From: Escherichia coli
GTDB taxonomy: Bacteria > Pseudomonadota > Gammaproteobacteria > Enterobacterales > Enterobacteriaceae
Assembly (NCBI RefSeq): GCF_046105845.1
Contig: NZ_CP151004.1
Strand: one strand, 5' to 3'
Length of the DNA stretch: 64,000 nt
Part shown: positions 48,106 to 53,875 of the stretch, in pieces
How the letters are laid out: each line of letters starts with the position of its first letter
How positions within the stretch are numbered: the stretch's first letter is position 1
Position numbers and translations under genes: made by a program
Notes under the pieces: generated by a model
Told to the model about the DNA's origin: nothing
Seen by the model: the letters and a program-made list of their open reading frames with translations, nothing else
Databases searched by the model: none

Positions 48106-48277
48106 GTCTCTGCTTTTTGCCGCTTTTGTAATACAGTCTACGTCCGGGTTAGCGCCGCCTGGTGAAAGCATCATTGGATGAAAAATCGGCAACAGGCTGG
48201 CCCCTGTTTGCTTCGCGATGCGAATAAACTTATTATTTGTGTGCCTGAAAACCCCGATCAGTGAGAGTAGTGTACTC

Positions 48278-50467
48278 ATGTTTGTGGAGCATAACCTGAT
48301 AAAAAATATCAAGATATTCACACTAGCGTTTACGCTCACCGTGGTACTTATTCAGCTATCCCGTTTTATTTCGCCACTTGCCATTATCCATTCCAGTTAT
48401 ATCTTTCTGGCGTGGATGCCACTGTGCGTAATGCTGTCAATCTTGTTTATCTTTGGCTGGCGCGGTGTCGTTCCCGTTTTATGCGGGATGTTTTGCACCA
48501 ATCTGTGGAACTTTCATCTCTCTTTTTTACAGACCGCGGTCATGCTCGGCAGCCAGACGTTTGTGGTGTTGTGTGCCTGCGCAATATTACGCTGGCAGCT
48601 GGGGACGCGTTGGCGTTATGGATTGACCAGCCGATATGTCTGGCAACGTCTTTTCTGGCTTGGTTTGGTGACGCCGATCGGCATCAAATGCAGCATGTAT
48701 CTTGTGGGGAGCTTTTTTGATTTCCCGCTAAAGATATCCACCTTTTTCGGCGATGCGGATGCCATTTTCACAGTCGTTGATTTACTAAGCCTTTTCACCG
48801 CTGTGCTGATTTACAACATGCTTTTCTACTATCTCACTCGCATGATTGTAAGTCCCCACTTTGCGCAGATATTGTGGTGCAGGGATATCGCTCCGTCGTT
48901 GGGCAAAGAGAAACGCGCATTTACCTTAAGCTGGCTGGCAGCGTTAAGCGTGCTGCTACTTCTGCTGTGCACACCGTATGAAAATGACTTTATTGCCGGT
49001 TACCTGGTGCCCGTTTTCTTCATTATCTTTACCCTCGGGGTCGGTAAGCTCCGCTATCCGTTTTTAAATCTCACCTGGGCTGTTTCAACGCTTTGCCTTC
49101 TGAATTACAACCAGAACTTTTTGCAAGGGGTGGAAACCGAATATTCGCTGGCATTTATTCTCGCGGTGCTGATTTCCTTTAGCGTTTGCCTGCTCTATAT
49201 GGTGCGCATTTATCATCGCAGTGAATGGCTTAATCGCCGCTGGCATTTGCAGGCGCTGACCGATCCGTTAACGCTCCTACCCAACTTTCGTGCGTTAGAA
49301 CAAGCGCCGGAGCAAGAGGCGGGCAAGAGTTTTTGCTGCCTGCGCATTGATAATCTTGAGTTTATGAGTCGTCATTACGGCTTAATGATGCGCGTTCACT
49401 GTATCCGATCAATTTACCGTACGCTGCTGCCGTTGATGCAGGAAAACGAAAAGTTGTATCAATTGCCGGGTAGTGAACTGCTGTTAGTGCTGAGCGGGCC
49501 GGAAACGGAAGGGCGACTCCAGCATATGGTTAACATCCTGAATAGTCGGCAAATTCACTGGAACAATACCGGGCTGGATATGGGCTATGGTGCTGCCTGG
49601 GGGCGTTTTGATGGAAATCAGGAAACCCTGCAACCCTTGTTGGGGCAGTTAAGCTGGCTGGCGGAGCAATCCTGCGCACATCATCATGTGCTGGCGCTGG
49701 ATAGCAGAGAGGAGATGGTTTCCGGGCAGACCACTAAACAGGTGCTATTGCTGAATACCATTCGTACGGCGTTAGATCAGGGTGATTTGCTGCTCTACGC
49801 CCAGCCAATTCGCAACAAAGAGGGTGAAGGTTATGATGAGATCCTCGCGCGACTGAAATATGACGGCGGCATTATGACCCCGGATAAGTTTCTGCCCCTT
49901 ATTGCTCAGTTTAACCTTAGCGCGCGTTTTGATTTGCAAGTGCTGGAATCCTTGTTGAAGTGGCTGGCAACACACCCTTGCGACAAAAAAGGTCCGCGCT
50001 TTTCAGTCAATTTAATGCCGCTCACGCTGCTGCAAAAGAATATTGCCGGGCGGATTATTCGTCTGTTTAAGCGTTATCACATCTCCCCGCAGGCGGTCAT
50101 TCTTGAGATCACCGAGGAGCAGGCGTTTTCTAACGCAGAAAGCAGCATGTACAACATCGAGCAACTGCATAAGTTTGGCTTCCGGATTGCGATTGATGAC
50201 TTTGGCACCGGCTATGCCAACTACGAACGGTTAAAGCGTTTGCAGGCTGATATCATCAAAATTGATGGTGTCTTTGTGAAAGATATCGTCACGAATACGC
50301 TGGATGCGATGATTGTGAGATCAATTACCGATCTGGCGAAAGCGAAGTCATTGAGTGTGGTCGCGGAGTTTGTCGAGACGCAACAGCAGCAGGCGCTATT
50401 GCATAAGCTCGGGGTGCAATATCTGCAAGGGTATTTGATTGGTCGCCCGCAGCCATTAGCTGATTAA
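48278..50467 (+). CDS. pdeA: Cyclic-di-GMP phosphodiesterase PdeA (YfeA): N-terminal membrane sensor domain, degenerate GGDEF, EAL domain
   Basis: 729 aa MFVEHNLIKNIKIFTLAFTL..; C-terminal EAL signatures (..IAIDDFGTGYANYERL..); ORF-track extension (48218) rejected. Confidence 0.92.
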   Translation: MFVEHNLIKNIKIFTLAFTLTVVLIQLSRFISPLAIIHSSYIFLAWMPLCVMLSILFIFGWRGVVPVLCGMFCTNLWNFHLSFLQTAVMLGSQTFVVLCACAILRWQLGTRWRYGLTSRYVWQRLFWLGLVTPIGIKCSMYLVGSFFDFPLKISTFFGDADAIFTVVDLLSLFTAVLIYNMLFYYLTRMIVSPHFAQILWCRDIAPSLGKEKRAFTLSWLAALSVLLLLLCTPYENDFIAGYLVPVFFIIFTLGVGKLRYPFLNLTWAVSTLCLLNYNQNFLQGVETEYSLAFILAVLISFSVCLLYMVRIYHRSEWLNRRWHLQALTDPLTLLPNFRALEQAPEQEAGKSFCCLRIDNLEFMSRHYGLMMRVHCIRSIYRTLLPLMQENEKLYQLPGSELLLVLSGPETEGRLQHMVNILNSRQIHWNNTGLDMGYGAAWGRFDGNQETLQPLLGQLSWLAEQSCAHHHVLALDSREEMVSGQTTKQVLLLNTIRTALDQGDLLLYAQPIRNKEGEGYDEILARLKYDGGIMTPDKFLPLIAQFNLSARFDLQVLESLLKWLATHPCDKKGPRFSVNLMPLTLLQKNIAGRIIRLFKRYHISPQAVILEITEEQAFSNAESSMYNIEQLHKFGFRIAIDDFGTGYANYERLKRLQADIIKIDGVFVKDIVTNTLDAMIVRSITDLAKAKSLSVVAEFVETQQQQALLHKLGVQYLQGYLIGRPQPLAD

Positions 50468-50474
50468 CAGGCGT

Positions 50475-50506
50475 AAAAAAGCCGGGGAATGATCCCCGGC
50501 TTTTTT
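50475..50506. terminator. Bidirectional rho-independent terminator between pdeA (+) and nupC (-)
   Basis: aaaaaa-gccgggga-atga-tccccggc-tttttt; perfect 8-bp GC stem. Confidence 0.85.
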
Positions 50507-50516
50507 ATGTATGGTT

Positions 50517-51719
50517 TTACAGCACCAGTGCTGCGATTGACGCAGACAGCACACTCACCAGGGTAGAGCCGTAAACCAGTTTCAGACCGAAGCGAGAAAC
50601 CACGTTACCTTGCTCTTCATTCAGGCCTTTAACCGCACCAGCGATAATCCCGATAGAAGAGAAGTTAGCGAAGGAAACCAGGAACACAGAGATGATGCCT
50701 TCAGCACGCGGAGAGAGCGTGGAAGCAATTTTCTGCAGATCCATCATCGCAACGAACTCGTTGGAAACCAGTTTGGTCGCCATGATACTGCCCACTTGCA
50801 GTGCTTCACTGGAAGGAACACCCATCACCCATGCAATCGGATAGAAGATGTAGCCCAGGATGCCCTGGAAGGAGATGCTGTAGCCAAACCAGCCAGTCAC
50901 GGTGGCAAACAGTGCGTTCAGCGCGGCGATCAGGGCGATAAAGCCGATCAGCATCGCGGCAACGATAATGGCAACTTTGAAACCTGCCAGAATGTATTCA
51001 CCCAGCATTTCGAAGAAGCTCTGACCTTCGTGCAGGTTGGACATCTGGATGTTTTCTTCACTGGCATCAACACGGTAAGGGTTGATCAGCGACAGCACGA
51101 TAAAGGTGCTGAACATGTTCAGTACCAGCGCCGCAACGACGTATTTCGGTTCCAGCATGGTCATGTATGCACCAACGATGGACATCGACACGGTGGACAT
51201 CGCCGTGGCAGCCATGGTGTACATGCGATTGCGGGAGATTTTGCCGAGGATATCTTTATAGGCAATAAAGTTTTCAGACTGACCCAGAATCAGGGAGCTG
51301 ACGGCGTTAAAGGATTCCAGTTTGCCCATACCGTTGACTTTGGAGAGCAGGAAACCAATTGCGCGGATAATTACCGGCAACACGCGAATGTGCTGGAGAA
51401 TACCGATCAGTGCAGAGATAAAGACGATTGGGCACAGCACTTTCAGGAAGAAGAATGCCAGGCCTTGATCATTCATGCTACCAAAGACGAAGTTAGTCCC
51501 TTCGTTGGCAAATCCGAGCAGTTTTTCGAACATTTCGGAGAAGCCTTTCACGAAGCCTAAACCAACGTCGGAGTTCAGGAAGAACCACGCCAGTAACACT
51601 TCGATAACAAGCAGTTGAATAACATAACGGATACGAATTTTTTTGCGGTCGCTGCTTACCAGCAGTGCGAGAATCGCAACAACGGCAAGTGCCAGTACAA
51701 AATGAAGGACGCGGTCCAT
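50517..51719 (-). CDS. nupC: Nucleoside:H+ symporter NupC
   Basis: 400 aa [53 protein letters not shown]..; ORF-track extension rejected. Confidence 0.95.
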
Positions 51720-51984
51720 ATTTGCTCCAAATATGAGGCAGGTTAAATTTCCGTGCACATTCTATGTAACATGGTTAAGGAAAACGAGATCTGACACACA
51801 CTATAATGACGTCCTGTGACCAGCTTCAAAAATAGTGAGCTGTCATACATTTCTGCTATGTTGTGTATGGAAGCTGAAAGTTATGTAAATGTGCTAACAT
51901 TAAACATAACCATAACATTCAAGTCATCAATCTTTTCGTAGTCATAATCCTGGTCTATCAGAGAAATCACCACAACCCATTTAA

Positions 51985-53761: not shown

Positions 53762-53875
53762 TGTTATTCTCCTTCACGATCGAAGCCGTCAGCGGCCTGT
53801 TAACGCAATATTACGGGGAGGTAAAGCCCCGTATCATCGCCATAACTCTTAAATCATAAAGGAGAGCATTTTTTG

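Follow-up and report, generated by a model that had tools for sequence, protein, structure and literature searches.

The 49 bp between the convergent genes pdeA and nupC of Escherichia coli are mostly taken up by a GC-rich hairpin, which raises the question of whether this element is a transcription terminator, a landing site for the insertion sequence IS186, or both, and of how its uninterrupted state in the present strain is to be read. The stretch of DNA analysed here, 64 kb long, is referred to as the window. Taken together, the evidence makes it very probable that the hairpin is a bidirectional terminator of pdeA and nupC doubling as an IS186 target, and that it is unoccupied here in what is both the ancestral and the majority state.

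The hairpin between pdeA and nupC

The features of the locus, with the tracts, stem arms and loop read directly from the window sequence, are as follows.

48278-50467, plus strand: coding sequence of pdeA (yfeA), c-di-GMP phosphodiesterase, within the open reading frame 48218-50467; start mapped from the K-12 orthologue (L001 279-2468)
50475-50506, both strands: predicted bidirectional intrinsic (Rho-independent) terminator, based on sequence, fold, terminator scan and conservation
50475-50480: A6 tract
50481-50488: left stem arm, GCCGGGGA
50484-50497: IS186 target motif GGGG-AATGAT-CCCC (GGGGAATGATCCCC), the sole GGGG-N6-CCCC in the 64 kb window
50486-50495: GGAATGATCC, the 10 bp duplicated either side of IS186 where the element has inserted in the allele of the window, as read at the junctions of strains SFE8, MIN6 and 602354
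50489-50492: hairpin loop, ATGA
50493-50500: right stem arm, TCCCCGGC
50501-50506: T6 tract
50517-51719, minus strand: coding sequence of nupC, nucleoside:H+ symporter, within the open reading frame 50517-51758; extent mapped from L001 3867-5069

The genes were named after their orthologues, found annotated in 5,425 of 5,426 complete E. coli genomes. A reading of the sequence without database searches had described a perfect hairpin with a loop of four nucleotides and flanking A and T tracts at 50475-50506, and the sequence reads exactly so. With both tracts included, the 32 nt form a perfect palindrome with arms of 14 nt. The A tract starts 7 nt past the stop codon of pdeA (50465-50467, plus strand), and 10 nt separate the T tract from the stop codon of nupC (50517-50519, minus strand), so that the hairpin lies just downstream of both genes.

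The stem comprises 8 bp, seven of them G-C, and closes a loop of 4 nt, with a T6 tract on each strand. In a 52-nt context the RNA folds with -31.1 kcal/mol on the plus and -25.1 kcal/mol on the minus strand (z = -7.4 and -7.7), a stability reached by none of 200 shuffled sequences. A terminator scan detects the hairpin at 50475-50506 on both strands, and on each transcribed strand a stable GC-rich stem-loop is followed by a U-tract. The hairpin is conserved across E. coli with minor variants, namely G or T in the loop, G or A at the base of the stem and, rarely, a shortened spacer. Structurally it does not differ from known bidirectional Rho-independent terminators, which display the same GC-rich stem-loop between an A-tract and a T-tract right after both stops. 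From these features we infer that 50475-50506 acts as the shared intrinsic terminator of pdeA and nupC. A promoter reading was discarded, since the promoter-like TTAACA-18-AATGAT that overlaps the hairpin is one of seven matches of this kind in the region, where chance alone would give 6.2.

The IS186 target motif and the occupied site of K-12

IS186 encodes a DDE transposase of the IS4 family. For its target consensus the work of SaiSree et al. 2001 is reportedly also named. The sequence-only reading had held that IS186 prefers palindromes of the GGGG-N6-CCCC type, in agreement with the published consensus 5'-GGGG(N6/N7)CCCC-3', which Lee et al. 2016 (PMC5009759) deduced from 59 insertions newly arisen in mutation-accumulation lines. 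According to this study K-12 contains only 54 IS186 target sites, 19 with an N6 and 35 with an N7 spacer; laboratory insertions occur in both orientations, some sites are hit repeatedly, and the N6 core is called the duplicated part (PMC5009759).

Positions 50484-50497 match this consensus exactly, with an N6 spacer. No GGGG-N7-CCCC is present in the 64 kb window, and if the spacer is relaxed to 4-8 nt only one other G4...C4 site appears, GGGGAGGTAAAGCCCC at 53815-53830, whose N8 spacer lies outside the N6/N7 rule. The bare motif is not statistically remarkable, as 0.6 occurrences per window are expected by chance and at least one is found in 41% of shuffles, and alone it would not prove that the site is a target. 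What gives the motif meaning is not its count but the perfect palindrome, its position and the occupation of orthologous sites.

The most familiar occupied site is that of K-12. The annotation of MG1655 lists 'insertion sequence:IS186C' at 2514273-2515617 between nupC (b2393) and pdeA (b2395), which bears out the earlier statement that K-12 carries an IS186 copy between nupC and yfeA. Likewise, when 2 kb with the site at the centre served as query, the match to K-12-type genomes was broken into two parts that together span 3,350 bp, and an IS4-like transposase is annotated between these parts. The proposal would have fallen had the K-12 alignment revealed no IS element at this position; instead, IS186C is located inside the orthologous hairpin. 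The junctions read ...CCGGGGAATTATCC|IS|GGAATTATCCCCGG..., or in longer form ...AAAAAAACCGGGGAATTATCC | CATAAGCGC...GCGCTTATG | GGAATTATCCCCGGCTTTTTT..., and once the 1,339-bp element and one of the two 10-bp duplicates are taken out, an intact GGGG-N6-CCCC hairpin results, AAAAAAACCGGGGAATTATCCCCGGCTTTTTT. The duplicated sequence is GGAATTATCC (10 bp), which places IS186C at the centre, or dyad, of the hairpin. The length of this duplication is ambiguous: IS186 has C...G at its ends and every target contributes GG...CC, so that 6, 8, 10 and 12 bp all fit the data, according to whether the outermost C/G bases are counted with the element or with its target.

The site of IS186C thus corresponds to that of the window in locus, hairpin and GGGG-N6-CCCC geometry, with the element exactly at the dyad. 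However, the site in the window is unoccupied, and it differs from the reconstructed empty site of K-12 at two positions: the base of the stem at 50481 carries G in place of A, and the loop at 50491 carries G in place of T. The flanking haplotypes of the two differ at 21 of 1,780 positions. The claim that the site is intact and empty stands, since the whole palindrome was read and contains no IS186. The term 'pre-insertion state' applies in so far as the window presents an empty site of the ancestral type, but not in the literal sense of the progenitor allele of K-12, given the two differing nucleotides and the other haplotype.

The arrangement suggests how terminator and target could coincide. 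The G4 and C4 runs of the stem, spaced by six bases, would present the IS186 transposase with its GGGG-N6-CCCC target; insertion at the dyad of the palindrome by staggered cuts would duplicate GG-N6-CC, and the transposase would presumably recognise its target symmetrically. The same insertion would split the stem and deprive both pdeA and nupC of their terminator. At the orthologous pdeA/nupC sites the duplication does have the palindrome at its centre, and IS186 is found in either orientation, as with the laboratory insertions of Lee et al. 2016. The published hot spots (fimA, menC and the lon promoter) are situated in coding or promoter DNA and were hit in laboratory lines, whereas the pdeA/nupC site is a terminator occupied in natural isolates.

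Occupation by IS186 separates the halves of the stem by 1.3 kb, and the RNAs across the junctions fold no better than shuffled sequences (z of -0.2, +0.9 and +0.4, compared to -5.9 for the intact site). A terminator-like site was found at neither junction of the occupied loci. Insertion is therefore predicted to destroy the terminator for both genes, and transcripts of pdeA and nupC would read into the element. In the K-12 orientation, read-through from nupC is predicted to run in the sense direction of the transposase gene; with the element flipped, this would apply to read-through from pdeA. Inside IS186, on the strand antisense to insL, a terminator-like hairpin, GCCGGAAAGGGAGCTCCGGC followed by TTTTTTATTA, is located (L002 3050-3069), which in the K-12 orientation would be met by read-through from pdeA about 570 nt into the element.

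A few empty sites carry rare alleles. In N1420 (L015) the A and T flanking the loop are lost, giving GGGG-ATTA-CCCC, which keeps the hairpin but has an N4 spacer; VG38-53E1 (L017) has an N5 spacer and PEC209 (L016) has GGG in place of GGGG. Under the published rule these alleles would be poor IS186 targets, and some of the shortened centres may be homopolymer sequencing errors.

Occupancy among E. coli genomes and the empty state of the window

The state of the site in the 5,426 complete E. coli genomes was determined with three 120-nt queries, each either joining 40 nt of flank to 80 nt of IS or covering the intact site, at an E-value cut-off of 1e-42 to exclude half-matches. The site is empty in 4,422 genomes (81.5%). 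IS186 is present in the K-12 orientation in 470 genomes, 448 with the K-12 allele and 22 with other alleles, and in the flipped orientation in 464, of which 36 carry the allele of the window and 428 match with about two mismatches; E. coli C and ETEC H10407 belong to the flipped class. About 70 genomes (1.3%) were left unclassified by the three queries. The resulting total of 934 occupied sites, about 17%, counts genomes and not insertion events, and is inflated by laboratory derivatives of K-12 and by clonal inheritance. IS186 as such occurs in 2,210 of the 5,426 genomes (41%, leaving 59% without) with 8,524 copies, 836 of them on plasmids. About 11% of all copies sit at pdeA/nupC, and about 43% of the genomes that bear the element have it there.

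Insertion with a 10-bp duplication at the orthologous position was read in K-12, CFS3292, E. coli C, SFE8, MIN6, 602354 and 14EC001. The duplication GGAATTATCC is found in K-12 and CFS3292, both in the K-12 orientation, and in E. coli C, where the element is flipped. The second duplication, GGAATGATCC, is found in SFE8 and MIN6 (K-12 orientation) and in 602354 (flipped), with hairpin arms identical to those of the window; these three strains establish that the exact hairpin allele of the window is competent for insertion. Four classes of junction are thus observed at an identical position, both orientations on each of two duplication alleles. The occupied flanks fall into two haplotypes, which are 8 of 1,780 positions apart and each internally identical, and the window represents a third flanking haplotype with 17 differences over the same 1,780 positions from the nearer occupied one.

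A duplication is copied, on both sides, from whatever target was present at insertion, and two duplication alleles therefore imply at least two independent insertions. A single ancestral insertion shared by descent was rejected: the left and right copies of GGAATTATCC agree with each other, as do those of GGAATGATCC, and the flanks differ at 8 sites. Judged from the junction sequences, there have been at least two insertions at pdeA/nupC and, most simply, four; the differences in orientation would represent two further events, either new insertions or in-place inversions via the inverted repeats.

In the window itself no remnant of IS186 was detected along the 64 kb, neither its inverted repeat, CATAAGCGCTAACTTAAGGGTTG, at up to three mismatches, nor a blastn match, nor a tblastn match to InsL. 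On comparison of these sequences the site is best read as never occupied, since empty sites prevail across all alleles and the window has a haplotype other than the two occupied ones. With 81.5% of genomes in the same state, the empty site is ordinary and not a special relic. Over positions 38001-63000 the best match among the 5,426 complete genomes is 98.5% identical over 25 kb and fully colinear, and in the 2 kb around the site identity rises to up to 99.5% (strain GN25). The source lineage is either poorly represented among complete E. coli assemblies or mosaic.

Other readings of the locus have to be set against that of a terminator doubling as an IS186 target. The hairpin may be a terminator only, its likeness to an IS186 target being inconsequential in a genome that lacks the element and whose site is empty for lack of exposure. 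We consider the chances of this to be roughly even, and it is compatible with the dual reading rather than opposed to it, since the site would still be a competent target. It accords with the absence of IS186 from the 64 kb window and with the restriction of the element to 2,210 of the 5,426 genomes; moreover, the lineage of the window has no relative closer than the 98.5% match from which its IS content could be deduced. However, at least three other strains have IS186 inserted in this very allele, and the 836 plasmid copies demonstrate that the element also travels, so exposure can arise. For the source genome itself, the site may never be at risk, considering the lack of IS186 in the window and in 59% of all genomes.

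Much less probable is a post-excision state, in which IS186 was lost precisely by recombination between the 10-bp duplications. Such an event would restore exactly the same sequence without a scar, and one excision was recorded among 857 IS events in mutation-accumulation lines (PMC5009759). Yet empty sites prevail across several hairpin alleles, the haplotype of the window is 17 differences in 1,780 positions away from the nearest occupied one, and precise excision is rare, so that parsimony favours a site that was never occupied; we regard an excision here as highly improbable. Slighter still are the odds that the palindrome belongs to a REP/BIME-like repeat family or forms a structured regulatory RNA. 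Between convergent genes, a GC-rich intergenic palindrome does occupy a frequent location of REP elements, and weak Rfam matches to sRNA and leader models were obtained, but the flanking A and T tracts are the signature of an intrinsic terminator. A repeat family was dismissed because the sequence occurs at a median of one place per genome and has no second copy in the window. A known RNA family was dismissed as well: in an Rfam scan at a permissive E-value all matches were sub-threshold, none scoring above 28.8 bits where the gathering scores are 45 or higher, and they align to generic terminator hairpins of unrelated models.

On the reading of a terminator doubling as an IS186 target, the strain keeps the ancestral, uninterrupted pdeA/nupC terminator, and the site is the one place in the window where insertion of IS186 would be anticipated, should the genome contain the element or receive it on a plasmid. 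For annotation, a difference specific to K-12 finds its explanation: K-12, together with 17% of the genomes, lacks the predicted terminator for both genes. The underlying biology is already known from the annotated IS186C, the published target consensus and the textbook terminator. A literature search found no paper joining IS186 with nupC, and what is mildly new is limited to the tallies across the species and the evidence that the site was used recurrently; the tallies offer a modest, reusable picture of IS186 funnelled into few hairpin sites.

Other resident IS186 sites

In K-12 all three IS186 copies reside in GGGG-N6-CCCC sites. IS186A, downstream of dnaJ, is inserted in GGGG-ATCACT-CCCC and IS186B, downstream of hokE, in GGGG-AGTAAT-CCCC, each with a 10-bp GG-N6-CC duplication. 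These sites, dnaJ/hokC and hokE/entD, resemble that of pdeA/nupC in being GC-rich hairpins, (G)CGGGGA-N4-TCCCCG(C), at the 3' ends of genes with 10-bp duplications; in contrast, they belong to other loci and lack the symmetric A and T tracts of the pdeA/nupC terminator.

Eight further natural copies were inspected, two at dnaJ/mokC and one each at pdeA/nupC, ygeQ, cas3/hok, hokE/entD, plasmid-borne hokD and inside yeaR. The G4...C4 pattern fits six of the eight, and most of the eight sites are short hairpins at gene ends. Imperfect duplications accompany the copies at yeaR and at plasmid hokD, and at yeaR the flanks also seem non-canonical. Several natural copies adjoin toxin genes of the hok family, namely hokE, the hok gene beside cas3 and plasmid hokD.

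IS186 fills the dnaJ/hokC site (NC_000913.3 15387-16731 and its orthologues L003, L022 and L024) in about 1,590 of the 5,426 genomes, in 678 with a K-12-like and in 922 with a flipped orientation, and thus more often than the pdeA/nupC site. Since this site is fuller and likewise holds both orientations, the pattern at pdeA/nupC is typical of resident IS186 sites and not exceptional. Together the two sites hold ~30% of the 8,524 IS186 copies in the 5,426 genomes. One might speculate that IS186 in nature lives mainly in a few terminator-type G4/C4 hairpins, which would serve as low-cost landing pads, although we rate so general a rule as rather doubtful. Both orientations of IS186 occur on identical flanking haplotypes, which could mean that the same pads were hit repeatedly or that the element flipped in place by recombination between its inverted repeats. 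These repeats are 23 bp long, or about 26 bp with the contribution of the palindromic target, and may be the substrate for such a flip. Neither a terminator niche nor in-situ flipping of IS186 was found in the IS186 literature searched.

One occupied pdeA/nupC locus departs from the common pattern. In EM20-18-50 (L009, NZ_CP063467.1) the 10-mers flanking IS186 are unlike: the left one is GGATCTCTCC, the right one GGAATTATCC, and they differ at 4 nt. The left 10-mer is one base from the duplication at the dnaJ site, GGATCACTCC. The mismatch may reflect gene conversion between IS186 copies that ran a few bases into the flank, or an assembly error.
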